DNA of 52,670 bases from Nemertoderma westbladi (lineage: Eukaryota > Animalia > Xenacoelomorpha), in NCBI GenBank assembly GCA_032718475.1, contig JAUCBJ010006512.1:1-52670 (forward strand). Reading direction: 5' to 3'. The translations under genes and the position numbers were made by a program. The notes under the pieces were generated by a model. It searched no databases. It was not told the origin of the DNA and saw only the letters and a program-made list of their open reading frames with translations. Below, in pieces: positions 16,229-47,124 of the stretch (positions are counted from its first letter, which is position 1; every line of letters begins with the position of its first letter).

Positions 16229-16421
16229 ATACGAATTATGGCGGGAAATTTAAATTCTGATGGGTAAGCCAGACCATGTGCTGTAAAGTATACATAGAGA
16301 GGCCTATCAACTGTACCGGTACATTTGGCAGTTACTAATACATAACATAAAACAGTAATATTATTGACATCCATCCGGCAGAATGCATCCGTACTAATGC
16401 GCTGTTGTGGTCTATTCTGTC

Positions 16422-21600: not shown

Positions 21601-24600
21601 AGAATGTTCTCGTAACCCCAATTACCAACCCAATAATGTCCCTGTCCCAGAATGTTCTCGTAACCCCAATTACCAACACAATAATGTCCCTGTCCCAAAA
21701 TGTTCTAGTAACCCCAAATACCAACCCAGTAATGTCCCTGTCCTAGAATGTTCTCGTAACCCCAATTACCAACCCAATAATGTCCCTGTCCCAGAATGTT
21801 CTCGTAACCCCAATTACCAACACAATAATGTCCCTGTCCCAATGTTCTCGTAACCCCAATTACCAACCCAATAATGTTCCTGTCCTAGATTGTTCTCGTA
21901 ACGTAAATTATCAACCCAATAATGTCCCTGTCCTAGAATGTTCTCGTAACCCAAATTACCAACCCAATAATGTCCCTGTCCCAATGTTCTCGTAACCCCA
22001 ATTACCAACCCAATAATGTCCCTGTCCTAGAATGTTCTCGTAACCCCAATTACCAACCCAATAATGTTCCTGTCCTAGATTGTTCTCGTAACGTAAATTA
22101 TCAACCCAATAATGTCCCTGTCCTAGAATGTTCTCGTAACCCAAATTACCAACCCAATAATGTCCCTGTCCCAATGTTCTCGTAACCCCAATTACTAACC
22201 CAATAATGTCCCTGTCCTAGAATGTTCTCGTATCTCAAATTACCAACCCAATAATGTCCCTGTCCCAGAATTTTCTCGTGACCCCAATTACCAACCCAAT
22301 AATGTCCCTGTCCTAGAATGTTCTCGTAACCCCAATTACCAACCCAATAATGTCCCTGTCCCAGAATGTTCTCGTAACCCCAATTACCAACCCAATAATG
22401 TCCCTGTCCCAATGTTCTCGTAACCCCAATTACCAACCCAATAATGTCCATGTCCTAGAATGTTCTCGTAACGCAAATTATCAACCCAATAATGTCCCTG
22501 TCCTAGAATGTTCTCGTATCTCAAATTACCAACCCAATAATGTCCCTGTCCTAGAATTTTCTCGTATCCAAATTATCATCCCAATAATGTCCCTGTCCTA
22601 GAATGTTCTCGTATCTCAAATTATCAACCTAATAATGTCCCTGTCCTAGAATGTTCTCGTATCTCAAATTACCAACCCAATAATGTCCCTGTCCCAAAAT
22701 GTTCTAGTAACCCCAAATACCAACCCAATAATGTCCCTGTCCCAAAATGTTCTAGTAACCCCAAATACCAACCCAATAATGCCCCTGTCCCAAAATGTTC
22801 TAGTAACCCCAAATACCAACCCAATAATGTCCCTGTCCTAGAATGTTCTCGTAACCCAAATTATCAACCCAATAATGTTCCTGTCCCAGAATGTTCTCGT
22901 AACCCCAAATACCAACCCAATAATTTCCCTGTCCCAAAATGTTCTCGTAACCCAAAATACCAACCCAATAATGTCCCTGTCCTAGAATGTTCTCGTAACC
23001 CCAATTACCAACCCAATAATGTCCCTGTCCCAGAATGTTCTCGTAACCCCAATTACCAACACAATAATGTCCCTGTCCTAGAATGTTCTCGTAACCCCAA
23101 ATACCAACCCAATAATGTCCCTGTCCCAAAATGTTCTAGTAACCCCAAATACCAACCCAATAATGCCCCTGTCCCAAAATGTTCTAGTAACCCCAAATAC
23201 CAACCCAATAATGTCCCTGTCCTAGAATGTTCTCGTAACCCCAATTACCAACCCAATAATGTCCCTGTCCCAGAATGTTCTCGTAACCCAAATTATCAAC
23301 CCAATAATGTTCCTGTCCTAGAATGTTCTCGTAACCCCAAATACCAACCCAATAATGTCCCTGTCCCAAAATGTTCTCGTAACCCCAAATACCAACCCAA
23401 TAATGTCCCTGTCCTAGAATGTTCTCGTAACCCCAATTACCAACCCAATAATGTCCCTGTCCCAGAATGTTCTCGTAACCCCAATTACCAACACAATAAT
23501 GTCCCTGTCCTAGAATGTTCTCGTAACCCCAAATTCCAACCCAATAATGTCCCTGTCCCAAAATGTTCTAGTAACCCCAAATACCAACCCAATAATGTCC
23601 CTGTCCTAGAATGTTCTCGTAACCCCAATTACCAACCCAATAATGTCCCTGTCCCAGAATGTTCTCGTAACCCCAATTACCAACACAATAATGTCCCTGT
23701 CCCAATGTTCTCGTAACCCCAATTACCAACCCAATAATGTTCCTGTCCTAGATTGTTCTCGTAACGTAAATTATCAACCCAATAATGTCCCTGTCCTAGA
23801 ATGTTCTCGTAACCCAAATTACCAACCCAATAATGTCCCTGCCCCAATGTTCTCGTAACCCCAATTACCAACCCAATAATGTCCCTGTCCTAGAATGTTC
23901 TCGTAACCCCAATTACCAACCCAATAATGTTCCTGTCCTAGATTGTTCTCGTAACGTAAATTATCAACCCAATAATGTCCCTGTCCTAGAATGTTCTCGT
24001 AACCCAAATTACCAACCCAATAATGTCCCTGTCCCAATGTTCTCGTAACCCCAATTACTAACCCAATAATGTCCCTGTCCCAGAATGTTCTCGTAACCCC
24101 AATTACCAACCCAATAATGTCCCTGTCCTAGAATTTTCTCGTATCTCAAACTATCAACCCAATAATGTCCCTGTCCTAGAATGTTCTCGTATCTCAAACT
24201 ATCAACCCAATAATGTCCCTGTCCTAGAATGTTCTCGTATCTCAAATTATCAACCCAATAATGTCCCTGTCCCAGAATGTTCTCGTAACCCCAATTACCA
24301 ACACAATAATGTCCCTGTCCTAGAATGTTCTCGTAACCCCAAATACCAACCCAATAATGTCCCTGTCCCAAAATGTTCTAGTAACCCCAAATACCAACCC
24401 AATAATGCCCCTGTCCCAAAATGTTCTAGTAACCCCAAATACCAACCCAATAATGTCCCTGTCCTAGAATGTTCTCGTAACCCCAATTACCAACCCAATA
24501 ATGTCCCTGTCCCAGAATGTTCTCGTAACCCAAATTATCAACCCAATAATGTTCCTGTCCTAGAATGTTCTCGTAACCCCAAATACCAACCCAATAATGT

Positions 24601-27600
24601 CCCTGTCCCAAAATGTTCTCGTAACCCCAAATACCAACCCAATAATGTCCCTGTCCTAGAATGTTCTCGTAACCCCAATTACCAACCCAATAATGTCCCT
24701 GTCCCAGAATGTTCTCGTAACCCCAATTACCAACACAATAATGTCCCTGTCCTAGAATGTTCTCGTAACCCCAAATTCCAACCCAATAATGTCCCTGTCC
24801 CAAAATGTTCTAGTAACCCCAAATACCAACCCAATAATGTCCCTGTCCTAGAATGTTCTCGTAACCCCAATTACCAACCCAATAATGTCCCTGTCCCAGA
24901 ATGTTCTCGTAACCCCAATTACCAACACAATAATGTCCCTGTCCCAATGTTCTCGTAACCCCAATTACCAACCCAATAATGTTCCTGTCCTAGATTGTTC
25001 TCGTAACGTAAATTATCAACCCAATAATGTCCCTGTCCTAGAATGTTCTCGTAACCCAAATTACCAACCCAATAATGTCCCTGCCCCAATGTTCTCGTAA
25101 CCCCAATTACCAACCCAATAATGTCCCTGTCCTAGAATGTTCTCGTAACCCCAATTACCAACCCAATAATGTTCCTGTCCTAGATTGTTCTCGTAACGTA
25201 AATTATCAACCCAATAATGTCCCTGTCCTAGAATGTTCTCGTAACCCAAATTACCAACCCAATAATGTCCCTGTCCCAATGTTCTCGTAACCCCAATTAC
25301 TAACCCAATAATGTCCCTGTCCCAGAATGTTCTCGTAACCCCAATTACCAACCCAATAATGTCCCTGTCCTAGAATTTTCTCGTATCTCAAACTATCAAC
25401 CCAATAATGTCCCTGTCCTAGAATGTTCTCGTATCTCAAATTATCAACCCAATAATGTCCCTGTCCTAGAATGTTCTCGTAACCCAAATTACCAACCCAA
25501 TAATGTCCCTGTCCTAGAATGTTCTCGTATCTCAAATTACCAACCCAATAATGTCCCTGTCCCAGAATGTTCTCGTGACCCCAATTACCAACCCAATAAT
25601 GTCCCTGTCCTAGAATGTTCTCGTAACCCCAATTACCAACCCAATAATGTCCCTGTCCCAGAATGTTCTCGTAACCCCAATTACCAACCCAATAATGTCC
25701 CTGTCCCAATGTTCTCGTAACCCCAATTACCAACCCAATAATGTCCCTGTCCTAGAATGTTCTCGTAACGCAAATTATCAACCCAATAATGTCCCTGTCC
25801 TAGAATGTTCTCGTATCTCAAATTACCAACCCAATAATGTCCCTGTCCTAGAATTTTCTCGTATCCAAATTATCATCCCAATAATGTCCCTGTCCTAGAT
25901 TGTTCTCGTATCTCAAATTACCAACCCAATAATGTCCCTGTCCCAAAATGTTCTAGTAACCCCAAATACCAACCCAATAATGTCCCTGTCCCAAAATGTT
26001 CTAGTAACCCCAAATACCAACCCAATAATGCCCCTGTCCCAAAATGTTCTAGTAACCCCAAATACCAACCCAATAATGTCCCTGTCCTAGAATGTTATCG
26101 TAACCCAAATTATCAACCCAATAATGTTCCTGTCCCAGAATGTTCTCGTAACCCCAAATACCAACCCAATAATTTCCCTGTCCCAAAATGTTCTCGTAAC
26201 CCCAAATACCAACCCAATAATGTCCCTGTCCTAGAATGTTCTCGTAACCCCAATTACCAACCCAATAATGTCCCTGTCCTAGAATGTTCTCGTAACCCCA
26301 ATTACCAACACAATAATGTCCCTGTCCTAGAATGTTCTCGTAACCCCAAATACCAACCCAATAATGTCCCTGTCCCAAAATGTTCTAGTAACCCCAAATA
26401 CCAACCCAATAATGTCCCTGTCCTAGAATGTTCTCGTAACCCCAATTACCAACCCAATAATGTCCCTGTCCCAGAATGTTCTCGTAACCCCAATTACCAA
26501 CACAACAATGTCCCTGTCCCAATGTTCTCGTAACCCCAATTACCAACCCAATAATGTTCCTGTCCTAGATTGTTCTCGTAACGTAAATTATCAACCCAAT
26601 AATGTCCCTGTCCTAGAATGTTCTCGTAACCCAAATTACCAACCCAATAATGTCCCTGTCCCAATGTTCTCGTAACCCCAATTACCAACCCAATAATGTC
26701 CCTTTCCTAGAATGTTCTCGTAACCCCAATTACCAACCCAATAATGTTCCTGTCCTAGATTGTTCTCGTAACGTAAATTATCAACCCAATAATGTCCCTG
26801 TCCTAGAATGTTCTCGTAACCCAAATTACCAACCCAATAATGTCCCTGTCCCAATGTTCTCGTAACCCCAATTACCAACCCAATAATGTCCCTGTCCTAG
26901 AATGTTCTCGTAACCCAAATTACCAACCCAATAATGTCCCTGTCCTAGAATGTTCTCGTAACCCCAATTACCAACCCAATAATGTCCCTGTCTCAATGTT
27001 CTCGTAACCCCAATTACCAACCCAATAATGTCCCTGTCCCAATGTTCTCGTAACCCCAATTACTAACCCAATAATGTCCCTGTCCCAGAATGTTCTCGTA
27101 TCTCAAATTACCAACCCAATGATGTCCCTGTCCTAGAATTTTCTCGTATCCAAATTATCATCCCAATAATGTCCCTGTCCTAGAATGTTCTCGTATCTCA
27201 AATTATCAACCTAATAATGTCCCTGTCCTAGAATGTTCTCGTATCTCAAATTACCAACCCAATAATGTCCCTGTCCCAAAATGTTCTAGTAACCCCAAAT
27301 ACCAACCCAATAATGTCCCTGTCCCAAAATGTTCTAGTAACCCCAAATACCAACCCAATAATGCCCCTGTCCCAAAATGTTCTAGTAACCCCAAATACCA
27401 ACCCAATAATGTCCCTGTCCTAGAATGTTCTCGTAACCCAAATTATCAACCCAATAATGTTCCTGTCCTAGAATGTTCTCGTAACCCCAAATACCAACCC
27501 AATAATGTCCCTGTCCCAAAATGTTCTCGTAACCCCAAATACCAACCCAATAATGTCCCTGTCCTAGAATGTTCTCGTAACCCCAATTACCAACCCAATA

Positions 27601-29649
27601 ATGTCCCTGTCCCAGAATGTTCTCGTAACCCCAATTACCAACACAATAATGTCCCTGTCCTAGAATGTTCTCGTAACCCCAAATACCAACCCAATAATGT
27701 CCCTGTCCCAAAATGTTCTAGTAACCCCAAATACCAACCCAATAATGTCCCTGTCCTAGAATGTTCTCGTAACCCCAATTACCAACCCAATAATGTCCCT
27801 GTCCCAGAATGTTCTCGTAACCCCAAATACCAACCCAATAATGTCCCTGTCCTAGAATGTTCTCGTAACCCCAATTACCAACACAATAATGTCCCTGTCC
27901 CAATGTTCTCGTAACCCCAATTACCAACACAATAATGTCCCTGTCCCAGAATGTTCTCGTAACCCCAAATACCAACACAATAATGTCCCTGTCCTAGAAT
28001 GTTCTCGTAACCCCAATTACCAACACAATAATGTCCCTGTCCCAATGTTCTCGTAACACCAATTACCAACCCAATAATGCTCCTGTCCTAGATTGTTCTC
28101 GTAACGTAAATTATCAACCCAATAATGTCCCTGTCCTAGAATGTTCTCGTAACCCAAATTACCAACCCAATAATGTCCCTGTCCCAATGTTCTCGTAACC
28201 CCAATTACCAACCCAATAATGTCCCTGTCCTAGAATGTTCTCGTAACCCCAAATACCAACCCAATAATGTCCCTGTCCCAAAATGTTCTAGTAACCCCAA
28301 ATACCAACCCAATAATGTCCCTGTCCTAGAATGTTCTCGTAACCCCAATTACCAACCCAATAATGTCCCTGTCCCAGAATGTTCTCGTAACCCCAAATAC
28401 CAACCCAATAATGTCCCTGTCCTAGAATGTTCTCGTAACCCCAATTACCAACACAATAATGTCCCTGTCCCAATGTTCTCGTAACCCCAAATACCAACCC
28501 AATAATGTCCCTGTCCTAGAATGTTCTCGTAACCCCAAATACCAACCCAATAATGTCCCTGTCCTAGAATGTTCTCGTAACCCCAAATACCAACCCAATA
28601 ATGTCCCTGTCCCAATGTTCTCGTAACCCCAATTACCAACCCAATAATGTCCCTGTCCTAGAATGTTCTCGTAACGCAAATTATCAACCCAATAATGTCC
28701 CTGTCCCAGAATGTTCTCGTAAACCCAATTACCAACCCAATAATGCCCCTGTTCTAGAATGTTTTCGTAACCCCAATTACCAACACAATAATGTCCCTGT
28801 CCTAGAATGTTCTCGTAACCCCAATTACCAACCCAATAATGTCCCTGTCCCAGAATGTTCTCGTAACCCCAATTACCAACCCAATAATGTCCCTGTCCCA
28901 GAATGTTCTCGTAACCCCAATTACCAACCCAATAATGTCCCTGTCCCAGAATGTTCTCGTAAACCCAATTACCAACCCAATAATGTCCCTGTCCTAATGT
29001 TCTCGTAACCCAAATTACCAACCCAATAATGTCCCTGTCCTAGATTGTTCTCGTAAGCCCAATTACCAACCCAATAATGTCCCTGTCCTAGAATGTTCTC
29101 GTATCTCAAATTCCAACCCAATAATGCCCCTGTCCTAGAATGTTCTCGTATCTCAAATTACCAACCCAATAATGTCCCTGTCCTAGAATGTTCTCGTAAC
29201 CCCAATTACCAATCCAATAATGTCCCTGTCCCAGAATGTTCTCGTAACCCCAATTACCAACCCAATAATGTCCCTGTCCCAATGTTCTCGTAACCCCAAT
29301 TACCAACCCAATAATGTCCCTGTCCTAGAATGTTCTCGTAACGCAAATTATCAACCCAATAATGTCCCTGTCCCAGAATGTTCTCGTAACCCCAATTACC
29401 AACCCAATAATGTCCCTGTCCTAGAATGTTCTCGTAACGCAAATTACCAACCCAATAATGTCCCGGTCCCAGAATCTTCTCCTAACCCCAATTACCAACC
29501 CAATAATGTCCCTGTCCCAGAATGTTCTCGTAACCCTAATTACCAACCCAATAATGTCCCTGTCCCAGAATGTTCTCGTAACCCCAATTACCAACCCAAT
29601 AATGTCCCTGTCCCAATGTTCTCGTAACCCCAATTACCAACCCAATAAT
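18688..29649. repeat. 48-bp satellite array, left arm (with 46- and 47-bp variants)
   Basis: Unit CCAATTACCAACCCAATAATGTCCCTGTCC(C/T)AGAATGTTCTCGTAACC, continuous over ~11 kb. Confidence 0.97.
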
Positions 29650-30403
29650 TATCACGGCGACTACCTCATACAGTCATATGCCAGTACTGCAGTACGCAGA
29701 TATGGCAGTAGTATGGAGGAAGCCGTTTAGAAAGTTTCAATATAAAAAAACGCCGAAAGGGACGAACCGCAATCTTATATATAAAATACTTTCTTGGTCC
29801 CCGAGCCAGACCAGTCAGTCGTTATGCTGGGCCCTTCTGTCAGGTATGTTCTCTTTTTAATAAGAGAATTGACACTGTCTATCTAATTAATTACCTTACT
29901 ATAAAATGTGTATAAAATGTGCTCTGCATATGCCAACCCAACCCAAAGTCCACCCCGATTGGCCCACCCAAAGTCAGAAAGTCGCCCAAATACAGAAATG
30001 TCCACCCTGATTAGCCCACCCAAACAGCCAAAGTCTGAAAGTTGTAAGAGATAAATAATGAATAACGTGAATAGCGTACGCTCCAGGCAGCCAGGACGGT
30101 AGAAAGGTGCCAGGATCCGAGGCTGGACAGGTTTATCCGATTATATGAGTAATCTGGTCGTTAGATAGTTCGGTAGTTAATCGTAAAATCTCCATAAAAA
30201 TCAGAACATTCACCAGCACTAACTCTGACTATGATTAAGACAAGCTGACAAGGTCTGTACCGCTGTACCGGTAACAGTATGCAGTATGTTCCGCAGTTAC
30301 TGATTCCAAGCCTGTACAGTGCCAGCTGTCCTGTCTCTTTTTTGTGCTTACATTTTTGAGGCCTCAGAAACCAGCTAGTCCCAACCGCCGGGCGTACGCA
30401 ATA
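29650..30403 (-). repeat. 3' LTR (754 bp), termini 5'-TATTGCG...CGTGATA-3'
   Basis: Matches 39701-39741 + 42598-43307, except for a 3-bp indel and one substitution that I could see. ATTAAA on minus at 29856-29861. Confidence 0.93.
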
Positions 30404-30422
30404 CCGCTCTCCTAATTTTTTC
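30404..30422 (-). promoter_or_regulatory. Polypurine tract (plus-strand primer)
   Basis: Minus strand reads GAAAAAATTAGGAGAGCGG immediately before the 3' LTR. Confidence 0.75.
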
Positions 30423-31559
30423 ATATAATATAACAAATTAGCACAAATAGTACGCCCATTTGCCTCTAAAACTAAAAAACCTTCATGGGCAATAAATCAA
30501 TAAACTAAATAATATTACACTTTAATCGTATTAGAGTTTGTATAGTGTATATATAGAGTACATCCAATATACCTCCAATGAGGTGAGAGAAAATAAAACG
30601 TACAGTAGGACTCGATCATTGACCGCGGACCTGAGCATTATTGGTCGCAAAAGAGTTCTGCAGTTATCGCAATATCAATGAGCTGGTTTAGAGGACTAAA
30701 TAATCAATCGTTGGAGAACCAGTGATGCAGAAATCGAAAGACGAGCACCAAAGTCGAGCCGCAGTCATTAGAGAACCCTGATCAAATCTATTATCTAAAT
30801 AATATTTTTTGTAACTGATAGCGATAATATTCGCCATTGTGATATCTTCTGCTTGTCATATTAATCGGTAGATGAGCGTCTCTGGTAGATAATTCAGTAT
30901 TTACCGCTCATATTATAATTAATTTTTCTTCATTCCGTTTATGAAAACCTTTGCTGGGTTTATTTCCATAAGTGATGATACAATGTCAATAGGTGTTAAA
31001 ATCATCAGGACTACTTCGAATTTGGCACAGCCTCGGAGATGATAATATTTTTCGTACCCAGGATATTATGTAATCCATAATCCTTCCAAATCACCCCCCA
31101 CAACCCGACCAACTGCATCCCACATCCCATATAATGCAAACCAAACCGCACCCCACATCCCATATAATACAAACCTAACCCTAGAGCTCATTTTCCTTTT
31201 CGAGTGGGTTTTTTTATTTATTTTTTTATTATTGTACTTTCGGTTTATAAAATTACGAAAACCGAATGAAAAATATTGCCCGAGGACAAAAAAAGTGTTT
31301 TTTGGGAGTTCTGAGCATATTTTTAATTTAATTAATATACTTTATTCATTCTCAAAAATAAATTTTATTTCAGAACTCAAAATAATGCGGCATTTATAAT
31401 GAATGGTGAGAATATGTTAGTAAGTTAATATTAATATTTTGTTTACTTATACATAAGCAAAGTTGGGCCTACATAGTATTGTTATACGATACCGTAGTAC
31501 ATTATAAAACAGAATCACATAATACAAGTCACATAATGGGGATTATTAAGTGTTTATAT

Positions 31560-34500
31560 TTACATTGGATTACCGCTCTCATGCACATTTACGTTCTGTG
31601 GTGTGTTGTGCAACGCCATTTCTGAGTCTTGTTCTAGGAGGCAGAGTTTGCGAATAGGACGTTCTAGAACCTGACCAGAGGGTACCTTTAATAAAACACT
31701 TCGCACAAGTCCATCTTTGCCGATTTTTGGCTCAATAACCTGAGCAATTTTCCAATTTTTGCGAGATATCAGTGGTTCATGAATCAAAACTAAATCTCCA
31801 GTTTTAACATTCTCTACTCTGCTGAACCATTTTGTACGCAGTTGTTGACTGGGTAGATAATACTGCAGCCAAATCCGCCAGAATGTATTTGTTAAAAGTT
31901 GCAAAGTTTTCCACATGCGTTTTGAGTTGATGTCTCCATCGTCAATCTTGCTGATAGGTACCATTGTGGCGCTCTTTGTATACAAAAAATGTGCCGGTGT
32001 AAGTGCTTCCACACATTCAGGTGAGTGTGACATCTTTGTTAAAGGTCTCGAGTTTAATACACACTCAACTTCACAGAACAATGTCCGCATAGCCTCATCA
32101 TCGAGGTATGTGTAGTTTAATTCAGCAGGCAATATCTTATATAAGGATCTCTTGACACTTTGGACTAATCGCTCATAAGTGCCACCATACCATGGTGAAT
32201 ATGGTGGTGTGAAGTCCCAGTCTATAAATTGGATCTGATAGTCCTTCAATGTTTCTTCGACTAAAACTTTATTCCAACCTTCAATTGACTTAGATATCTC
32301 TTTGTTAGATGCAACAAAGTTGCCACCATTATCAGACGTTATAGATTTTGGTGTACCTCGTCTGGTGATGAATCGCCGTAAAGCCAGTAAGAAAGAGTCC
32401 ATATTAGAGTGAAACATTAGATCGATATGAATGGCACGAGTTGTCATACAGACCATTAAAATGCCCCATCGTTTGATTATTGATCTCGCACGTTTGACCT
32501 CAATTGGTCCGAACATATCAATCCCACAATTTGTGAATGCAGGTTCAAAAATGGCAAAACGGGTTTCTGGTAAATCTGCCATCTGTTGTTGCATGAGTGG
32601 TGCATTAAAGCGTTGACATGGTAAGCAAAATTTCATGACATTTTGTAATGTTCTCCAGGGGTAGATGAGGTAATAATGTTGTCGTAAATGAGCTAATATG
32701 TGATCTCGCCCTGCATGGTTAAGATCCAGGTGGGTATCATAGATCAACTGTTGCAATAACAATGGCTCTCTGATGAGTATTGGATGAATTGTGTTTTGTG
32801 ATACTGGAGCAAATGTTAAGCGAGTTTTAACTTTAACAAGTCCATCTATCATGGTGGTATTGTATTTAGATGGTTTGATTGGTTTATCATGTTGGTGTTG
32901 GGAATATAGATTCTCATCAGACAGCACTTGAGAGAGACGCAAACGTTGTTTGAGAGTCACTGAACGTTCTTCTGCAGTAATTGGTTGCAGAAAATGTTCT
33001 GGGATTGTGGTCACATCCTGGGCTTTCTTCCAACATTTCCAATGTGTGTATCTCTTAATTCGACATAGCTCATCTATTGTTTCTCGTAGAGACTTATTGT
33101 TCCTCAAAACATCTTCAAGCCAAGGACTCAAACCCCTAGAGATATCTGGAAAATTTGCATCTGTCGGTTGCTTCTGGTATTGTTCATTGACTACTGCAAC
33201 CACCTCAGTTAATCCTTGCTCTTTATAGGACTGATTAACACTATATTTATTATCTTTAATTAAAAGTTTTGATCGTTTTGGTTGTGGTTTAGATGGTATG
33301 GTCTCCGCTCTCGCAGGGAGCTGTAGATCCTGAAGAGGTTCAGGCCAATACTCTGCTGTCTTAGAAAGAAAGTCAGGGCCATTCTACCATACCCTGTTGT
33401 TGATTATCTCATCAGCATAAGCTCCACGTGATGTGAGATCTGCAGGATTGTTGACACCTGGTACATGAAACCACTGCTCTACTTGGGTGAATTTTAAAAT
33501 ATGATTCACTCGATTGGTAACATAAACACATAGTTTATGTTTTTGATTATGTAGGTATTGAATTACAAGTGATGCATCTGTCCAATAGAATAAGTGCAAT
33601 TGTATAGTGAGTTCCTTAGAGATCATTCTAGACAGGTCTACACCCATAACTGCAGACTGCAATTCTGCGCGTGGTGTCATTAGTCCCTTGGTTGGCATCA
33701 CACGGGATTTCGATGCCGCAAATGCAACCTGTATATTAGAAGGGGATGCTTCGAATCGCAAATAAGCCACTGCTCCCATGCCCTTTGAACTTGCATCAGA
33801 AAATATATGCAGTTCCAAAATGTCATGCTTTCGGAGTCCTTTGAAATATGTTCGCTAAATACGTAGTTGTTCAATATTCCTGAGATCATTTTCCCATCGT
33901 CGCCAATCTTTTTGGAGTTGAATAGGTAGTGGATCATCCCAGTCAAGGTCTTCTTGCCACATTTCTTTTATCAATAATTTTGGCAATAATATTACAGGGT
34001 TGAGAAATCCTAATGGATCGAAGACTCCAGCAAGTTTTGACAAACATTTACGTTTTGTAGATGAGATCTTCTGTATGTCAATCTTCACCTTAAAGTAGAA
34101 CTCATCTTCCAAGGTTGCCCATCTCATCCCTAAGATTTTAGTGACAGGTAAGGGATCAGAGTCCAGATCAATATCTGGATTTGCACGTTGATCGGCAGGG
34201 AATGATTCAAGAAACTCTTTGCTATTGCTGGCAAATTTGATTAAGTTGAAACCACCCTTCTTCAAGCAACTTTGAACTCCATGGGCAACATCAATGGCCG
34301 TTGTTTGGTCTTGTTCAGAATCAGCAACATCATCCATATAGATGTTGGTTTGAATAGTTTCAATAACTGCAGAATCAAATTGATATTTATTATCTTCAGC
34401 AGTGCTATATATAATACTTTCACAGTTACTTGGTGAAGATATTACACCAAAAGGTTGAGTTGTCATCCAATATTGAGTGGGTTCTCCTTCTAGAGATTCG

Positions 34501-37500
34501 TCAGGCCACCAGTAATATCGCAGGCTGTCTCTATCTATAGATGGTACTCGAACCTGCAGGAACATACCTTCAATGTCTGCGGTAAAGGCATAATCAAATT
34601 CGCGGAATCTGAATAAAATCCCATGTATCGAATGGAGAAGATTTGGACCAGCCATAATTTCTGTATTCAAAGACTGACCACGATATTTTGCTCTACAATC
34701 AAAAACAACTCTAACCTTTCCAGGTTTGTTTTCATTGGTGACAAAGTGATGAGGCATGAAATAGGATCTTGGTACGAAATCCAGGGAATGAGATGGGACA
34801 GGTTCAGCAGCTCCAATATTCAAATATTTTGTCATCTGTATATGATACATCGCAAGGTAATCTGGCTTTTGTAAAAGCCGTTTTCTTAATGATTTAACAC
34901 GCCGCTTAGCTAAAGACTCATTATTAATTAACTGAGGAGGATCTTGGCGCCATAATAATCCTACTTCATAGTGACCATCAGAGAGTTTTTTGCGAGTTCG
35001 ACTTTGGATCTCAATGGATCGCTGTTCTTCAATGGAGAAACCAATATCAGTTTCATGAGGGAGGTAGGCATCTACATCAAGCCAATTTCGGATTGTTCTA
35101 TCTAGTTGGAGGTCTCTTTCAAGATTATGACTTTCATCATTGGATTCATCCTCTGATATGCTGGTAGGACTACTTTCAATTGTTAATAAGGATTTAATAT
35201 CTGCACAAATATCAAACTCTTGACCATTATCATTAAAGATATCATCCAACTCTCGTTGCATGACATTCTCAAAACATTGACAAACAGATTCATTTGTACT
35301 TGACTCAGTAAAGTTAATATGAGTGGTGCTACGTTCCTGCAGAGTCCTATCTGAAGGACCAGAGCAGTACCACCCAAGTGATGTGCGAGCTGCAAATGGC
35401 TTTGTCATCCGGTCTTCCACCATGGGGTCTGCTGGGATGACTTCTAGAATCCTGAAAATTTCAGGGCAATTCTGTCCCAGCAACATCATAATTTTAGGAT
35501 AACTTGAGTTTGGGATAGGAATATTATTATCCTTGACGAAATTATCATCCTTCCAATCATAAGGAATGCCAAGTGAATCAGCTAATTCCTCCATACGGAT
35601 AAACTTTACATTTTTGGCTGTCTGTCCATTAAAACTACTTAGAGCTGGACTTAGGTTAGCCTTAGCTACCACTGTACTAATTTCCTTACGCCAAGAGACA
35701 ACTGTCAAGCGAAGTTTTGCAGCAGTGTGATCAGAAAATACCTGGTCGAATATTGTACTATCCAGGAATGAAGATGAACTGCCAGTGTCAATAAGTGCAT
35801 GAACAATGCAAGATGACTTGTCGCCAGTGATCTTCAGGGTAAGAATTGGAAATTCACGAACTACTTGGCCCCCTCTGTGAATACGACAGATTACAATGGA
35901 AGAGGAGTCCGACATTTCACCCTCAAAGTCAAATTCACTTGAATTCATTTTGTCATCATCAGTATCAGAAGAGACTGCATTTACTTTAGTTTCAAAGTGC
36001 TTCTGGTCATTACTTGACATCTCCAGTTTATGAAGTATGGTATGATGGCTTCGACCACACTTGCGACATTTATTTTTATTTTTACATTGGGATTTTCTGT
36101 GCATATTTGATAAGCAATTATAACAAAGACCTTGAACCTTACAATAATCTCTTCGTTGATCTAGTGTCATGGCAAGAAAGTGTTCACATTTGTATAGGGG
36201 GTGTGGTCCTGTACACTGAATACATTTCTGCTCACCTGTAGCTTTGGATTCCTTCTGTTGGTCTTTCAAATAACTCTCCTTAATATAATCTTTCTTAGAT
36301 TGAGGAAGGTTGATTTGCCCAACATTGGCTCTGTTCACTGTTTCGTCATCTTGTCCGGAATCTACAGCAAGGTTAGTTTTCGTAGACTTTACCTTTCCCT
36401 TAGTTGATTGATCATGAGATTTCGAGAAGTAGAGTAAAATCTCAACTTCTTCTTCTAAGAATTGGGAGAAATGTGAGGCTGTGATAGCTGTATTTGGTAT
36501 ACCATTTCTTTCTAACCTCAGCCTTTTCTTATACCATCGCCGACGAATACCAGAGTCTAATTTATTTACAACATCTTTGAGTATCTTTGCATTATCAAGT
36601 TGATGTTCCACACCAAGACGCTTTAATTGTTTGAGGGTTCTGTTAAACTCATCAGCAAATTCTATAACTTTAGAACTAGAAGTTCCTTTTATAGGTTCAA
36701 TTTTTAACAGTCCTTCTATAAGTGAGTTCACAATATTTTCATCTTTGCCATAACGTCTTCTTAATTCACCCCAAGCTTGATCAAAACCATCTTCTAAGCC
36801 AACAAAGGTTTGAGCGAGGCGCAGTGGAGCATCTTCCAACATTGAACAAAGGTAGTTGTGCTTCTCTTGATCTGAGAGTGGGTAAAGTAGTACATTTGTT
36901 TTAAAATGATGTTGGAAATTTATCCATTCATCGGGGGCGCCAGAAAATTTTATGAATTTTAATTTTGGTAAATTTCTATCCGCTGAAAGACGGCTCATGG
37001 CCTGAACTATGCTTTCCTCAGCTGCAGACTGATTTGTTCTTTTTTGGGAAAAGTCTAGAAACCCAGGCGTATTGTATTTTCTCCTAGTATCATTTACATC
37101 TTGTTCGATTACATGTTGGTTAGTTAGTTCTTTTATGCGATCAGTCATTTCTTTAGAGTTCTGGCGTACAATATCTTGAACGAATTTCTCGAAATGTGGC
37201 GGGATTGACATAGGATCTGCGTTATTATCTGTGATGATTTTCTGAGCATTTGTATTGTCTGGGCCAATACTGTAGGAAGTTAAATTGGGCAATTCCTGTC
37301 GGTGGTGTGAAGCCAGACGTATTCGTTCCTGTTCAGATTGTTGAAGTTGAGCTGCTTGCTGATTTAATTCATTACTCTGTTGAAGAACAGTGGCAGTTAG
37401 ATGCTCATTTTGGATTTGCATATCAGCCATTATCTGTCTTACCTCACTATTAATCAAATGTTGCTGAATATTGCCTGGTCTATTAGTAGGTTGTCGCGGA

Positions 37501-39083
37501 GACACTGTATATTGATGGCTATTTCGCAGGCTGTTATATTGCTGAGATGGGACATAGGTAGGATTAACAAATCGATGATTCTGCGGTAGTGTTCCTAAGT
37601 TTGAGTGTGGAATGAGAGGGGCTGAATTTATTGCTGGTTATTGCTGAACTAACTCAGACATAGGATGATTCAGCTCCAATGAAGGATTTTGAAGATTAGA
37701 TACAGGTATACCACCAATTTTCAACTCACTTGAACATTGTCGAGAATCTTTTGCTTCCTCAGCATGGTTCGGAGATGTATAGTTATACGGAAGCATATTT
37801 TTATTTATTAAAACAATAGGCGATAATGCTCGTGGAGGCTGTTCATTAGATCTAGTCACTGGGACTTTGGAATTCGATCGACTCTGGTCATCTAATCGAG
37901 TCGAAGTGAGGGGGTGAGCTGCAACATTATGTCCTGTTTGCAAATTGGCTGCAGAAATGGCGATATCATCAGGAATATTGGGATTTACTTCCAAGTCATT
38001 TTCATTGAGGTCCATGTCATCCTCATCAGATTCCCCAGGCTCATCATCTTGTGACAAATAACGTCGGATAGAGTGTGGCAGTGAAGTCAATGGATGAATA
38101 CTAGACATCCGCTCATCAATTGGATCTCCAATAGCCTGTGCAGCTTCCCTAGCAGCTCTCCCCAATTTTCTCAACTCTTGTTGTCGAATGGCTAGTTGTT
38201 GATCCATTTGTAGTTCAAGTTGCTTTCGCTTGAGTTTCTCTTCAATATCCTGTTCCTTTCTTTTTCTCTCCCGTTCCTCTGCTTCGCGGACTAAAGATCT
38301 TTTCTTGGCCTTTGCGTCTATTTTTAGTTTTTCCATTTCAACTCCCTTCTTAAGTAAGTCTATAGCTATTTTTTCATTATCTTCAAACTGGTGGAATCTG
38401 GCTTCCTTGTATGCTGCATCTTCCGCAAGTCTTCTTCTGTTTTCTGAGATGACAGAAGGGGGTTTGCTGACTTGACTCAGTGAACAGTTTGGGGTTTTTC
38501 CAGTGAGAAGAGTCATACCCCGTGTGCCACAAATCTCAGCTAGTTTATTAGCAATTTCTTTCATACGGACGAGATGTTGTTGTTTTTTGTCTCGGGCTCT
38601 ATTTACAAGAGACTGAAAATTACGGGCTTCTGCCACCATTTTAAAATCTGAGACAAGTATGAGTAATTTATTTCCCTTAGATTCTAATTCCATATACATT
38701 TGGAATACCTGATCCTCCCGTAATGATTTAAGATTCTCTGGGGTGAGCTTAGAAGTTAAACTGTTGAGATATCGAGTGGAGGAGGCTAGGTATCCTGATA
38801 AACTCCGGCCCAGTCTCTCCTCAGAAGCACAAGCATCAATATCGTATGACCATAGGTGGGAACAAGCATCAAGGAATCGTTGGCGTGACTTATCAGAAAA
38901 TCGTCTGACAGCTATGCTCAAGCACTGATTCTCATCTAGGATTGGTAGTAATATGGAAGTTGTATGATCCACTGGAGTAGGTGGTAAAGAAGTGGAAGGA
39001 TCAAGGACTGTTTGATCTCCATCATATTCTCCACTGATTGATGAAGATTCACTTCTAGGAAGTGACTTAGTGCCAGTCGCCAT
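31560..39083 (-). pseudogene. BEL/Pao Gag-Pol polyprotein (~2500 codons, single frame) interrupted by three nonsense codons
   Basis: ORFs 37638-39119, 33855-37505, 33384-33818 and 31560-33203 share one frame with no other stops between them. Motifs: DUF1759-like Gag, three Cys/His knuckles (CIQC..H..C, CYNC..H..C, CRKC..HH..H), protease LIDTGS, RT YMDD, RNase H FSDAS...NPAD, integrase HHCC + GIDMFGP/SDNGGNF/YER. Confidence 0.92.
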
Positions 39084-39686
39084 AATATATATTTTTTTTG
39101 TTAAATTGTTTTTGATCAAATTGGGAAAATATAAGTTGAGTAAATGGTAGCCTATGGGACCTACCAGTCTGCCCGTTAAGTACGGTAGGCCTACTCCTCT
39201 AGCAGCCTAGAACTGTAGAGTAAAGTAGAAACACAGAAACAGGATGCAAATAATTGGAATAAAATTATTGACAAACACAAATATATTTAAACTGGGTTGA
39301 ACTAATAGCAAGTTGGGCGTCCCCAAGAGAGCAATCCCAGAAAGCTAAAACTGTAAAAGTTCACAGGAATCACTTCTCAGTCTCAGACTGAAAAGTCAGA
39401 ATATGAGCGAAAATATGCGGTCCTGAGGCGGAGCTCGCAAGTTCGCAGGATTGGTTGTAATTAAACAGTGACGAGCAGTTTAATTTTGAAATAAGGGCAA
39501 TGTCTGGCCGTATAACAGCAAACCAGCAGTGTCCTGCCCTACCGGGCTACCGGTAGGTGAATGCGAGTTCGGAACTTGGCCACATTGACGCAAAGAAGCA
39601 CAAACCGCACAGGTTGGTTTGAGAACGCCGAATTTTGATTCGGGCAATCCTCCTCAACCAACTGCAACCTAACCTATAAAGGAAAG

Positions 39687-39700
39687 GTTCTGATTTTTAT
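39687..39700 (-). promoter_or_regulatory. Primer-binding-site position; complementary to the LTR itself rather than to a tRNA 3' end
   Basis: Minus strand ATAAAAATCAGAAC abuts the 5' LTR and has no TGG. It is a 14/14 complement of the LTR minus-strand sequence GTTCTGATTTTTAT (43098-43111; 30194-30207). Confidence 0.7.
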
Positions 39701-39741
39701 TATCACGGCGACTACCTCATACAGTCATATGCCAGTACTGC

Positions 39742-42589
39742 CCCTATTGAAAAGTTTTATTTTCTGCGCCGAGCGCGGCGCCGGGTGCCAAAAATCCTGC
39801 GCCGGCTCTGAGCAAAACCACGCCGGGTGCAAAAAATCCTGCGCCGGCTCTGTGCAAAACCACGCCGGGTGCAAAGAATCCTGCGCCGGCTCTGTGCAAA
39901 CCAACGCCCATGCCAGGTGCAAAAATACGGCTCTGTGCAATGCAAAATGCTGCGCCGGGTGGAAAATAAAACATAAAATCTGCCTGTTATACTGTACAGT
40001 ACCTGTAGTTTATTCGGTTATCTATAATACTGCAGCTGCACTAATCAATCCGAGTTTACTTAAACGAACGAAAGTTGTGGGTGGGTGAAATGAAAATAAG
40101 GATACAGAGACGGAAAACCTTAATAAAGACAAATGCAACAAGTACAGTAGGTACGTTGTTATATTCCATAATTGTAACATTACGAAACAACTACTTAAGA
40201 AACACTGCATGTAAATTTTTGTTGTCAAGTGTACATTTTTTGAAATTACTCAAATGTTACAATATGAATTATAGAAAGAATATTAAAGACTACTTCAGTT
40301 GGCCTACAATAGTCCTTGTATTTATGTACTACGTTCTACTTTACTACATACTACGTAATGTGGTCCAGTATACGTCTATGCTACAGATACGGTATGTGGT
40401 ATGTCTGAATAAATAATGACTAGCTGTATGTTATGTTATGTTATTAATATCGCCAGAATAACAATAAAATATTAATTTTTGCACATGTACATACACGTCA
40501 GCACGTACAGTAGATTAAAATAAAATGAACACATATCTGGCAAAGTACGCTAATAAGCGTATGTATGTACTATTGTAAGAAAAATACGGATAATGGTATT
40601 CAGGTAAAATTAGTAAAATATTTAAAATTATAGTTTATTTACAGTACAGTTGGTGGATATTAATTATTAAAAAAAATGATATTACAGTAAAATTAAATTA
40701 AAAACCGGCAAAGCATACTTACAGTAGGTTCAAGGGCTTCAACAACATACAGTACTAAAGGCAAACATATTAATAAGGACAAGTTTACAATACTCTATAG
40801 GATACAACACAACAATACGTAGTTATACAGAACATAAATTTGGTACCGTAGGTATGTCGCATAAGTAAAATATTACTGCTGAAATAAAACGCGCAAAGTA
40901 AAGTAACTACAAAAGATAGGAAAACAATTAAACATAAAAAAACACTATTTTAAAATTTAACACAAAAAAATGTTTTTTGGGATTGAAAAAATGAAAATAA
41001 TAGGTACTGTAGCTTGATTTTAATATCGTTGTATCCGAAAGATATCGCTTTCGCTACTGCCACTTGGCGCACAGGAGTATCACTATATTCATTTTAAGGG
41101 ACATTTCGCAGTCTAGTCTATTTTTGAATATGCTCAATCATGGAGTACCAAGGGTATTACGTGCATTAACAACACTTTCCGGTAATGGTAAAGGATTCAA
41201 AATGTTTACAACGCTGTCTGCAAAGTTGTTGCGTGTTAGCATTGGTGGAGTTAGGAACGAAACTGGAAGAAATTATTTCGCTCAATTTTGTCAATCCCGT
41301 TGATAAACTTGTATGTTGTTATAAGGTTGGCTAGTACACGGCGATATATTAGTGTCGGTAGTTTGAGTGCAAGTAGTCGGTTTTCATATGACAACTCAGC
41401 CAGCGATAGTACAACTGTACAAGGCGAGTGACCACACGTTGTTGTACTTGTTTAAGACGTTCAATATTTATCATGTCGGAGGAATGGCGAACAAACAACT
41501 GTGTCGTATTCAAGGAGAGGCCGACAAGGGATTTGTATAACAGGGTCAGAGGGTAAACATCGGAGCTTCCAAATATGTAAAAGTTCTTCGTATTAAATGT
41601 ACGACTCGCATGGCGCGGGCTGCAGTCTTTGTGCAGTGAGCTGTGATGCTGTGAAGGACAAGTCTGGTGTAAATGTACTTCCAAAATCACGTTCCTCGGT
41701 TGCCGAGAAAAGTGTCCGTCCATTCATTGTGTAAAACGTTGCTTGGGGATTTCTAGAACCTAGATGCTTGCATGACCTTGCACTTGGAGTCATTGAACTG
41801 CAATTTCCAATGGTTACACATGTGTGTCGGTAATAAATTGTTTCATTATCAATAGTGCCATTGCCATAGTATAAGTCGTTTTGTTTTATTCACTGTTCAA
41901 CTTATTCTGTCTGCCTGTTTTATTATATGTGCAGTTTTATTTATACGCTTCTATGACAGCGGTGTCTCCATCCAAATAATATAATATAATATAAATATAG
42001 CTTATACTATACAGCAATATTAAGTAAATAAATAAACTGACTATGACCAATAGCAATAATGACTGATCAGCTGATAGCTGGAACTGTGATAGCCTACCTG
42101 CCTGCCTGCCTACTGCATAACAGCATAAGGTTAAATACGTAAATAAATGACCAGTTGCAGTCAGCCAGTGCTGCAGTGTGAGTTTCCTTTCTGCCTCCTG
42201 CATGGCCAGTTGTTATTGTGTTGCTGTGCTGTTGGTCTGATGAACGCATGTCTGCTGTCTCAGTCTCACTGTGCACTGTCTGCCTGGTGCTAGGTTCGGC
42301 TGATTTCTGCGCCAGGCAAATATGTACGCCGGGTGTGCTGGGCTGATTCCTGCTCCGGCGCCGGGTCAATTTCTGCAGCGTCGACGCCGGGAATATTTCG
42401 ACGCCTGCTGCGCCGAGCGCAGCATCTCTACCATTGGCAGTGCTCCGCCGGCTACGCCGGCGTAGCACATCTCTGCGCCGACCCTTCCGGCTCATTGCCC
42501 GGCGTAGCACATTTCTGCGCCAGCTCCCGGCGCAAGTTCTAGTGCTGCGCCGAACGTGCTCGGCGTACATGTAAAACTTTTCAATAGGG
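39742..42589. mobile_element. 2.85-kb non-autonomous DNA transposon, CCC...GGG termini, 8-bp TSD; superfamily unresolved
   Basis: Perfect 18-bp TIR CCCTATTGAAAAGTTTTA. TSD AGTACTGC at 39734-41 and 42590-97. GC-rich subterminal CGCCGG repeats (42-bp unit x~3 at left). No transposase. Confidence 0.9.
41105..41830 (-). pseudogene. Degenerate CR1-like LINE ORF2 (RT C-terminal) fragment
   Basis: Across frames: WKLQFNDSKCKVM, YTMNG..L...EERDFG, LYKSLV, IERLKQVQQR..TRLV, NLITTYKFING, LPESVVNA, FKNRLD. Confidence 0.75.
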
Positions 42590-43307
42590 AGTACTGCAGT
42601 ACGCAGATATGGCAGTATGGAGGAAGCCGTTTAGAAAGTTTCAATATAAAAAAACACCGAAAGGGACGAACCGCAATCTTATATATAAAATACTTTCTTG
42701 GTCCCCGAGCCAGACCAGTCAGTCGTTATGCTGGGCCCTTCTGTCAGGTATGTTCTCTTTTTAATAAGAGAATTGACACTGTCTATCTAATTAATTACCT
42801 TACTATAAAATGTGTATAAAATGTGCTCTGCATATGCCAACCCAACCCAAAGTCCACCCCGATTGGCCCACCCAAAGTCAGAAAGTCGCCCAAATACAGA
42901 AATGTCCACCCTGATTAGCCCACCCAAACAGCCAAAGTCTGAAAGTTGTAAGAGATAAATAATGAATAACGTGAATAGCGTACGCTCCAGGCAGCCAGGA
43001 CGGTAGAAAGGTGCCAGGATCCGAGGCTGGACAGGTTTATCCGATTATATGAGTAATCTGGTCGTTAGATAGTTCGGTAGTTAATCGTAAAATCTCCATA
43101 AAAATCAGAACATTCACCAGCACTAACTCTGACTATGATTAAGACAAGCTGACAAGGTCTGTACCGCTGTACCGGTAACAGTATGCAGTATGTTCCGCAG
43201 TTACTGATTCCAAGCCTGTACAGTGCCAGCTGTCCTGTCTCTTTTTTGTGCTTACATTTTTGAGGCCTCAGAAACCAGCTAGTCCCAACCGCCGGGCGTA
43301 CGCAATA

Positions 43308-46300
43308 ATAATGTCCCTGTCCCAATGTTCTCGTAACCCCAATTACCAACCCAATAATGTCCCTGTCCTAGAATGTTCTCGTATCTCAAATTACCAACCC
43401 AATAATGTCCCTGTCCTAGAATGTTCTCGTATCTCAAATTATCAACCCAATAATGTCCCTGTCCTAGAATGTTCTCGTATCTCAAATTATCAACCCAATA
43501 ATGTCCCTGTCCCAGAATGTTCTCGTAACCCCAATTACCAACCCAATAATGTCCCTGTCCCAATGTTCTCGTAACCCCAATTACCAACCCAATAATGTCC
43601 CTGTCCCAGAATGTTCTCGTATCTCAAATTACCAACCCAATAATGTCCCTGTCCTAGAATGTTCTCGTTTCTCAAATTATCAACCCAATAATGTCCCTGT
43701 CCTAGAATGTTCTCGTATCTCAAATTATCAACCCAATAATGTCCCTGTCCTAGAATGTTCTCGTATCTCAAATTTATCAACCCAATAATGTCCCTGTCCT
43801 AGAATGTTCTCGTATCTCAAATTATCAACCCAATAATGTCCCTGTCCTAGAATGTTCTCGTATCTCAAATTATCAACCCAATAATGTCCCTGTCCTAGAA
43901 TGTTCTCGTAACCCCAATTACCAACCCAATAATGTCCCTGTCCCAATGTTCTCGTAACCCCAATTACCAACCCAATAATGTCCCTGTCCCAGAATGTTCT
44001 CGTAACCCCAATTACCAACCCAATAATATCCCTGTCCAAATATTCTCGTAACCCCAATTACCAACCCAATAATGTCCCTGTCCTAGAATGTTCTCGTAAC
44101 GCAAATTATCAACCCAATAATGTCCCTGTCCTACTATGTTCTCGTATCTCAAATTATCAACCCAATAATGTCCCTGTCCCAGAATGTTCTCGTAACCCCA
44201 ATTACCAACCCAATAATGTCCCTGTCCTAATGTTCTCGTAACCCAAATTACCAACCCAATAATGTCCCTGTCCTAGAATGTTCTCGTAACCCCAATTACC
44301 AACCCAATAATGTCCCTGTCCTAGAATGTTCTCGTAACCCCAATTACCAACCCAATAATGTCCCTGTCCTAGAATGTTCTCGTAACCCCAATTACCAACC
44401 CAATAATGTCCCTGTCCTAGAATGTTCTCGTAACCCAAATTACCAACCCAATAATGTCCCTGTCCTAGAATGTTCTCGTATCTCAAATTATCAACCCAAT
44501 AATGTCCCTGTCCTAGATTGTTCTCGTAACCCCTATTACCAACCCAATAATGTCCCTGTCCCAGAATGTTCTCGTAACCCCAATTACCAACCCATTAATG
44601 TCCCTGTCCTAATGTTCTCGTAACCCAAATTACCAACCCAATAATGTCCCTGTCCTAATGTTCTCGTAACCCAAATTACTAACCCAATAATGTCCCTGTC
44701 CTAGAATGTTCTCGTAACCCCAATTACCAACCCAATAATGTCCCTGTCCTAGAATGTTCTCGTAACCCCAATTACCAACCCAATAATGTCCCTGTCCTAA
44801 ATTGTTCTCGTAACCCCTATTACCAACCCAATAATGTCCCTGTCCCAGAATGTTCTCGTAACCCCAATTACCAACCCAATAATGTCCCTGTCCCAGAATG
44901 TTCTCGTGACCACAATTACCAACCAAATAATATCCATGTCCCAGAATGTTCTCGTAACCCCAATTACCAACCCAATAATGTCCCTGTCCTAGAATGTTCT
45001 CGTATCTCAAATTATCAACCCAATAATGTCCCTGTCCTAGATTGTTCTCGTAACCCCTATTACCAACCCAATAATGTCCCTGTCCCAGAATGTTCTCGTA
45101 ACCCCAATTACCAACCCAATAATGTCCCTGTCCCAGAATGTTCTCGTGACCACAATTACCAACCAAATAATATCCATGTCCCAGAATGTTCTCGTAACCC
45201 CAATTACCAACCCTATAATGTCCCTGTCCTAGAATGTTCTTGTAACCCCAATTACCAACCCAATAATGTCCCTGTCCCAGAATGTTCTCGTAACCCCAAT
45301 TACCAACCCAATAATGTCCCTGTCCCAGAATGTTCTCGTGACCCCAATTACCAACCAAATAATATCCATGTCCCAGAATGTTCTCGTAACCCCAATTACC
45401 AACCCAATAATGTCCCTGTCCTAGAATGTTCTCGTAACCCCAATTACCAACCCAATAATGTCCCTGTCCCAGAATGTTCTCGTAACCCAAATTACCAACC
45501 CAATAATGTCCCTGTCCTAGAATGTTCTCGTATCTCAAATTATCAACCCAATAATGTCCCTGTCCTAGATTGTTCTCGTAAGCCCAATTACCAACCCAAT
45601 AATGTCCCTGTCCCAGAATGTTCTCGTGACCCCAATTACCAACCAAATATTGTCCCTGTCCCAGAATGTTCTCGTAACCCCAATTACCAACCCAATAATG
45701 TCCCTGTCCCAGAATGTTCTCGTATATCAAATTATCAACCCAATAATGTCCCTGTCCTAGATTGTTCTCGTAAGCCCAATTATCAACCCAATAATGTCCC
45801 TGTCCCAGAATGTTCTCGTGACCCCAATTACCAACCAAATATTGTCCCTGTCCCAGAATGTTCTCGTAACCCCAATTACCAACCCTATAATGTTCCTGTC
45901 CTAGAATGTTCTCGTGACCCAAATGACCAACCCAATAATGTCCCTGTCCCAGAATGTTCTCGTAACCCCAATTACCAATCCAATAATGTCCCTGTCCTAG
46001 AATGTTCTCGTGACCCAAATGACCAACCCAATAATGTCCCTGTCCCAGAATGTTCTCGTAACCCCAATTACCAACCCAATAATGTTCCTGTCCTAGAATG
46101 TTCTCGTAACCCAAATTACCAACCCAATAATGTCCCTGTCCTAGATTGCTCTCGTAACCCCAATTACCAACCCAATAATATCCCTATCCCAGAATGTTCT
46201 CGTAACCCCAATTACCAACCCAATAATGTCCCTGTCCCAGAATGTTCTCGTGACCCCAATTACCAACCAAATATTGTCCCTGTCCTAGATTGTTCTCGTA

Positions 46301-47124
46301 ACCCCAATTACTAACCCAATAATGTCCCTGTCCCAGAATGTTCTCGTAACCCCAATTACCAACCCAATAATGTCCCTGTCCTAGAATGTTCTCGTGACCC
46401 CAATTACCAACCCAATAATATCCATGTCCCAGAATGTTCTCGTAACCCAAATTACCAACCCAATAATGTTCCTGTCCCAGAATGTTCTCGTGACCCCAAT
46501 TACCAACAAAATATTGTCCCTGTCCTAAATTGTTCTCGTAACTCCAATTACCAACCCAATAATATCCATGTCCCAGAATGTTCTCGTGACCCCAATTACC
46601 AACCCAATAATGTCCCTGTCCTAGAATGTTCTCGTAACCCAAATTACCAACCCAATAATGTTCCTGTCCCAGAATGTTCTCGTGACCCCAATTACCAACC
46701 AAATATTGTCCCTGTCCTAAATTGTTCTCGTAACTCCAATTACCAACCCAATAATATCCATGTCCCAGAATGTTCTCGTAACCCCAATTACCAACCCAAT
46801 AATGTCCCTGTCCTAGAATGTTCTCGTAACCCAAATTACCAACCCAATATTGTTCCTGTCCCAGAATGTTCTCGTGACCCCAATTACAAACCAAATATTG
46901 TCCCTGTCCTAAATTGTTCTCGTAACTCCAATTACCAACCCAATAATATCCATGTCCCAGAATGTTCTCGTAACCCCAATTACCAACCCAATAATGTCCC
47001 TGTCCCAGAATGTTCTCGTGAACCCAATTACCAACACAATAATGTCCCTGTCCCAGAATGTTCTCGTGACCCCAATTACCAACCCAATAATGTCCATGTC
47101 CTAGAATGTTCTCGTAACCCCAAT
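43308..47124. repeat. 48-bp satellite array, right arm
   Basis: Same unit as 18688-29649, with distal-enriched variants (GTGACC, CCAAATATTG). Confidence 0.97.

Follow-up and report, generated by a model that had tools for sequence, protein, structure and literature searches.

How does a BEL/Pao retrotransposon begin minus-strand DNA synthesis when the nucleotides directly after its 5' LTR hold no TGG and are a perfect complement of its own LTR? Among the LTR retrotransposons of animals, BEL/Pao is the third large superfamily. The ICTV account treats its elements as tRNA primed, with an 18-nt primer binding site (PBS) for tRNA-Arg or tRNA-Gly, and calls their replication "poorly understood" (PMC8742986). 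The question is raised by a locus of Nemertoderma westbladi (contig JAUCBJ010006512.1; the window, i.e., the whole stretch of DNA analyzed, is 52,670 nt long), for which an original prediction from the letters of the DNA had proposed a BEL/Pao element that primes itself in the manner of Tf1.

Structure and classification of the element

The element is one young copy of a BEL/Pao LTR retrotransposon, 13,658 bp long including a 2.85-kb insertion (10.8 kb without it), and sits within a 48-bp satellite (Table 1). Its predicted BEL/Pao identity was borne out by Pfam, with four families above the cutoff (PF05380, PF03564, PF18701, and PF17921) and two below it (rve and RVT_1). By its proteins it is a member of BEL/Pao: Pao-type Gag-Pol domains follow the order PR-RT-RNase H-IN in a single frame, in which the catalytic motifs of reverse transcriptase (RT) and RNase H are intact, and an LTR pair, a polypurine tract (PPT), and a target site duplication accompany them, the LTR ends being noncanonical (TAT..ATA on both sides instead of TGT..ACA). 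An ATA end was also seen in three of the relatives described below (L056, L064, and L075). The closest homologs with the same Pfam domain set are at most 44% identical, no named reference element occurred among the homolog matches (clades Pao, Sinbad/Sailor, Suzu, Tas, BEL, Dan, and Flow), and a search for relatives among viral contigs found none. Between the two 754-nt LTRs we counted a single substitution and a single 3-nt indel, and this near identity points to a recent insertion. The present copy is dead or crippled, because it has three in-frame stops and an insertion in U5.

The ICTV description of Belpaoviridae gives LTRs of 0.2 to 1.2 kb, a single gag-pol frame, the order PR-RT-RH-IN, and a PPT (PMC8742986), and the element shares all of these features. 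It differs from that description in its LTR ends, which are not TG..CA, and in its length without the insertion, which is slightly above the stated 10 kb (PMC8742986).

Table 1. Positions of the element and its parts in the window
Feature	Position	Strand	Remarks
BEL/Pao LTR retrotransposon	29650..43307	-	LTR pair, Pfam
5' LTR, TAT..ATA ends, interrupted in U5	39701..43307	-	
3' LTR, 754 nt, uninterrupted	29650..30403	-	
Candidate self-primer, 5' LTR nt 197-210, exact PBS complement	43098..43111	-	
Candidate self-primer, copy in 3' LTR	30194..30207	-	
PBS lacking TGG, directly adjacent to LTR end (offset 0)	39687..39700	-	
Later insertion, 2,848 bp, high copy	39742..42589	.	18-bp perfect terminal inverted repeats, 8-bp duplication GCAGTACT
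Single gag-pol frame	31560..39083	-	Three in-frame stops: 37640-37638, 33857-33855, 33386-33384
gag-pol motifs: Cys-His knuckles, protease DTGS, RT YMDD, RNase H FSDAS..E..D..D, integrase HHCC + D,D-E, DUF5641			
Polypurine tract immediately before 3' LTR	30404..30421	-	
ATTAAA, predicted polyadenylation signal	29856..29861	-	No other A(A/T)TAAA follows the motif within the LTR; distance from the motif, 332 nt
TATATAAG, rival promoter element	29774..29781	-	Read from sequence
Target site duplication ATTAT, left copy	43308..43312	-	
Target site duplication ATTAT, right copy	29645..29649	-	
48-bp satellite array, flank, ~230 copies	18688..29649	.	
48-bp satellite array, other flank, ~80 copies	43308..47124	.	

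Insertion in the 5' LTR and copies in public sequencing runs

The original prediction did not mention that a 2,848-bp insertion splits the 5' LTR in U5; because it lies between the LTR motif and the PBS, the two are 3.4 kb apart in the present copy. The insertion is nonautonomous, its terminal inverted repeats start CCCTATTG, and it occurs at very high copy in four runs, with a contig depth far above that of the coding region. A 124-aa frame within it (41349-41723), for which we found no Pfam match, looks like the terminal part of a LINE reverse transcriptase. The insertion is missing from the LTR-PBS contig of run X1, and contigs of runs X1 and X2 (same species, two studies) contain an uninterrupted LTR followed by the identical PBS, joins that come from short-read contigs, which can collapse two LTRs.

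Further insertions with nonsatellite flanks in runs X2, X3, and X5 also begin at 30403. A 99-nt variant LTR contig, found in two runs of one sample (X3 and X5), carries four substitutions, two of them inside the motif (at 30199 and 30206), plus an 8-nt insertion. It may derive from a solo LTR in decay or from a subfamily whose PBS has matching changes. Contigs of X2, X3, and X5 skip 30189-30380, including the motif, and thus contain a primer-less LTR variant (the short side of the joint is 23 nt). At 30035-30079 of the 3' LTR, a GTACGC donor and a pyrimidine-rich acceptor lie 45 nt apart, and variant contigs have 38 other letters there, ending in a second strong acceptor; a mini-intron in R at this place is possible.

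Elsewhere in the window, the minus strand carries an intronless 550-aa gene with two dsRNA-binding motifs (5567-7240), which we take to be a Pasha/DGCR8-like gene, and a short intronless RING-finger gene (1756-2209). A foldback-like element, whose two ends carry 20-bp and 22-bp units in inverted arrays, occupies 15973-18316.

The primer binding site and its complement in the LTR

The PBS (ATAAAAATCAGAAC on the minus strand) follows the 5' LTR end at 39701 without any offset and, exactly as predicted, lacks TGG and is the reverse complement of a 14-nt motif in both LTRs. In this orientation the 3' end of the motif would face the first base after the LTR. The window holds no further match to the motif on either strand at up to two mismatches. 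The predicted chance level, of the order of 1e-5, agrees with our Markov estimate for a 14-nt complement (1e-5 to 6e-5), and when the LTR was shuffled 20,000 times with its dinucleotides preserved, a 14-nt match arose once (offsets of 0 to 4 allowed). The LTR-PBS complement is a real, nonrandom feature. The available text of PMC6317226 gives an in silico rule for self-primers, namely at least 10 bp complementary to the LTR, starting 0 to 5 nt after it; the pairing of the element is 14 nt long and begins at offset 0. The last two letters of its paired stretch are AT, and 19 of 21 relatives have either AC or AT at that place. The motif lies 197 nt from the LTR start (about 100 to 380 nt in relatives). 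Judged from its letters alone, the PBS does not correspond to the tRNA site of the ICTV description. A search of the window for tRNA genes found none, and Rfam returned three weak matches over the element (E, 0.8 to 3.5), all far below the gathering score.

Self-complementarity in related BEL/Pao elements

Relatives were fetched with an RT-region alignment of 40 homologs, and the best 80 of 518 confirmed metagenome stretches were taken; a repeat flanks the coding region on both sides in 37 of these 80 loci. In 14 loci the 5' LTR end was fixed by the divergence of the two copies, loci at contig edges or with unclear bounds being left out, and one rule was applied throughout, in which the pairing may be contiguous or interrupted by one GT-AG intron. 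Because this rule had been tuned on the first 14 loci, new loci were scored with it unchanged (15 of 20 held-out loci examined, 5 of them with both LTR copies running on). L081 to L100 are twenty BEL/Pao loci in contigs filed as bacterial genomes, bins that likely contain animal host DNA.

Pairing of 10 to 15 nt between an element's own PBS and its own LTR, in family-specific letters, was found in 15 of the 19 relatives with an independently fixed LTR end, families that are related and come partly from one sample series, such that the counts are not independent events. The predicted tRNA-independent site that pairs with its own LTR thus has counterparts with different letters. In 12 of these 15, a predicted GT-AG intron of the LTR divides the pairing; in the other 3 the pairing is contiguous, like that of the studied element. 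The first set contributed 12 of 14 loci (10 split and 2 contiguous) and the held-out set 3 of 5 (L081, contiguous, 11 nt; L087 and L089, split, 11 nt each); the remaining two held-out loci reached 8 nt (L086) and 9 nt (L097), the latter with a disturbed LTR end and the same donor and acceptor as L031. Under the same rule, about 1% of the controls passed (downstream leader windows, 7 of 690; cross-family pairs, 2 of 198). Left out of the 15 are contiguous matches of 10 to 11 nt at loci with an unfixed LTR end (L040, L043, L060, L004, L018, L026, and L062) and further split cases with an inferred LTR end.

A plain search found contiguous complements of 10 to 11 nt in two relatives (L021 and L075). 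In most others, a complement of 6 to 9 nt starts directly after a pyrimidine tract and AG, and the rest of the complement sits directly before a strong donor, mostly GTAAG, 67 to 186 nt upstream. Free two-piece matching without splice signals reaches 10 to 15 nt by chance and is not specific; the split cases therefore rest on their coincidence with strong splice signals. The original prediction had proposed looking for compensatory changes in related BEL families, and the sister pair L087/L089 provides such a case: the two share flanking letters, and their two PBS differences are matched by two LTR differences before the donor.

Among the misses, L070 pairs over 7 nt (11 of 12 nt with one G-U pair), and L074, the only one of 18 firm relatives with TGG in the first 8 nt, has an LTR complement of only 4 nt. 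The TGG site of L074 (positions 405-420) has the same 11 letters as the tRNA-Met PBS of GalEa copia elements, as given in the available portion of PMC5445492, and its LTRs are short (171 nt).

In a quick, unrooted RT tree, the pairing feature is spread across the relatives, mostly in the splice-split form, and the independent origin within this family that had been suggested is thus too narrow a view. One clade with 96% support holds both forms (L063 and L033, split; L021 and L075, contiguous). The studied element is a long branch (1.84) of unsure placement, at most 43% identical to any locus; relatives are therefore informative by analogy and not through alignable LTRs. A splice-built primer in the studied element itself was considered and rejected, the best splice-aware match being 8 nt and the five donor-acceptor junctions of the LTR matching the leader by at most 5 nt.

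Transcription start and R-U5 structure

The original prediction had put the transcription start at or near 43111. The sequence cues are mixed, and a start exactly there is not supported, given the unusual length that R plus U5 would have and a rival TATA box downstream. An A is found two places before the first paired base in the studied element and in 18 of 25 relatives, the U3 length fits a start at nt 195-197, and the sole polyadenylation signal lies downstream of that start. On the other side, a matrix built from the 25 relatives gives a poor score to the 12 nt preceding the motif (rank, 464 of 742), and the signal lies 332 nt after the motif, against 6 to 97 nt in the 16 of 21 relatives having one. 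The LTR has donors at nt 53, 325, 505, and 510 and acceptors at nt 175 and 369, of which the strong donor at nt 53 and the acceptor at nt 369 bracket the motif; by their letters, these sites suggest splicing patterns.

Both ATTAAA and TATATAAG are present where the original prediction had placed them. TATATAAG lies at LTR nt 623, and we take motifs near nt 420-460 to be CCAAT/GT-box-like by eye, so read from sequence transcription could start near nt 654, placing the motif in U3. The pairing would then be real and selected without serving as a 5' primer in cis, the motif acting from the 3' LTR (end-to-end pairing) or in trans through short LTR transcripts. This alternative is unlikely, although it is the best placed of those that we weighed. 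A T run near nt 654 lies 31 nt after TATATAAG; its distance from the LTR end, about 90 nt, resembles that in relatives, and its final 7 nt (29748-29742) are complementary to PBS nt 1-7; the same octamer precedes the paired stretch by 31 nt in the relative L015, and R plus U5 counted from the motif at nt 197 would be 544 nt, an outlier against 47 to 288 nt in 21 relatives. Against these points, no A(A/T)TAAA occurs downstream of nt 654, only seven A-U pairs would form there, and a variant contig of run X5 alters a base within the TATA box of TATATAAG. A TATA-like word at about -30 of the paired stretch occurs in only 1 of 21 relatives, which also led us to reject a general TATA box at -30 of the primer. 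Furthermore, the junction-spanning primer of the relatives could arise only if transcription began upstream of the donor, and this fits a 5' location of the primer.

Tf1 has been reported to need an R-U5 stem, and such a stem adjoining the duplex was part of the original prediction. Its helices (UUACG/CGUGA and ACUACC/GGUAGU) can be drawn and are present in the predicted two-strand structure, but their stability does not exceed that of controls (shuffles, p = 0.42; other LTR windows, rank 0.54), and R-U5 folded alone is unremarkable (z = 0.10). A significant R-U5 stem (p ≤ 0.05) was found in 0 of 18 elements, 17 of them relatives, and in 0 of 22 in another test. We therefore rejected the adjoining stem, which is no more stable than shuffles or other LTR windows.

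Proposed priming mechanism

We consider it likely, at a probability of roughly 0.7, that the studied element primes minus-strand DNA with its own LTR RNA instead of a tRNA, as Tf1 does, a reading that draws on sequence comparison. Transcription would start at or upstream of the motif, the A at 43113 being our best guess at odds a little short of even, and the 5' part of the LTR transcript, carrying the motif, would anneal to the PBS in cis. A cut after the AT at LTR nt 209-210, probably made by the element's RNase H as in Tf1, would free a 3' end, from which RT would copy U5 and R to give strong-stop DNA. In most relatives the primer would be split by the predicted GT-AG intron and exist only after splicing. 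The studied element likely represents the intronless state of the self-primed form, its intron presumably lost through a spliced 3' copy.

Slightly less probable still than a start near nt 654 is a structural or regulatory role of the duplex (dimerization, packaging, or translation control), with priming by an unrecognized host RNA. Copia groups include known cases of half-tRNA priming at sites that lack TGG, according to the available text of PMC6317226. The PBS letters differ by family, in a way that tracks the element's own LTR and not a fixed host RNA; pairing starts within 0 to 4 nt of the LTR end, which is where the end of any primer has to lie; and the Rfam result over the element names no candidate near the gathering score. 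A chance or relic match is very improbable, since relatives keep their own pairings with different letters and the near-identical LTRs imply recent movement with the present PBS, and the low computed probability and the same arrangement in 15 of 19 relatives outweigh the two changes in the motif of the X3/X5 variant LTR, the poor upstream context score, and the long branch.

Comparison with known systems

Self-priming is described for Tf1/sushi elements, Tj1, and Tcn1 and is predicted for the TAR lineage of copia in the available parts of PMC6317226 and PMC4600332. The studied element resembles Tf1 and Tf2 (Schizosaccharomyces pombe), Tj1 (S. japonicus), Tf1/sushi, and Tcn1 in having an LTR-adjacent PBS that has no apparent tRNA match and is complementary to its own LTR (PMC7175516 and PMC4600332, as far as their available text goes). 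The Tf1 primer consists of the first 11 nt, RNase H cutting between nt 11 and 12 (PMC7175516, available text), and this 11-nt duplex compares with 14 nt in the studied element and 10 to 15 nt in its relatives. Unlike Tf1/sushi and Tcn1, which belong to Ty3/gypsy, the element has Pao-type domains and no chromodomain match; it belongs to another superfamily and would be Tf1-like in its working, not a member of that group. It also differs from Tf1 in lacking a significant R-U5 stem, and the extreme 5' position of the primer and the RNase H cleavage are here proposals. A further difference from Tf1 is the primer split by a predicted intron in most BEL/Pao relatives, for which we found no published description.

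For the TAR lineage of Ty1/copia (Houba and Osr-1), self-priming was predicted from sequence by the same rule (PMC6317226, available text); these elements have the copia domain order and occur in plants, unlike the studied element. The TAR lineage is an already proposed second origin of self-priming, and BEL/Pao would be the third superfamily. Fungal GalEa copia elements likewise lack a tRNA PBS and have a conserved hairpin site; in the available portion of PMC5445492, this site is a conserved palindrome without an LTR complement, whereas the PBS here is variable and complementary to the LTR. In contrast to the tRNA-primed replication of Belpaoviridae in the ICTV description, TGG is absent from the studied element and from 17 of 18 firm relatives. 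Achilles is a BEL/Pao element. The available text of PMC4580426 gives it a tRNA-Tyr site.

Our literature search, with subscription papers, Repbase, GyDB, and supplements outside its scope, turned up no account of a BEL/Pao element that is primed by its own RNA or through splicing. The main text of two BEL/Pao surveys (PMC3118150 and PMC6238403) contains no mention of a primer, PBS, or tRNA, PMC554778 mentions only PCR primers, and the available parts of PMC3601003, PMC8220671, PMC13524379, and PMC5443660 hold nothing on BEL/Pao self-priming.

Implications for BEL/Pao biology

A broader scenario, to which we give slightly better than even odds, is that a large, old BEL/Pao branch of aquatic invertebrates does without tRNA priming: most of its members would splice together a primer from the 5' LTR, such that host splicing gates replication, and lineages like that of the studied element would have fixed the spliced primer in DNA by intron loss. 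The split form in relatives would link splicing directly to the start of reverse transcription, and the contiguous form in the studied element is the simplest case for testing the chemistry of priming. If the self-primed reading is true, tRNA fragments could not control such BEL/Pao elements, which would also go unnoticed by annotation tools for which a tRNA PBS or TG..CA ends are obligatory. If marine BEL/Pao elements prime themselves, the Tf1 mechanism arose or persisted in all three superfamilies.
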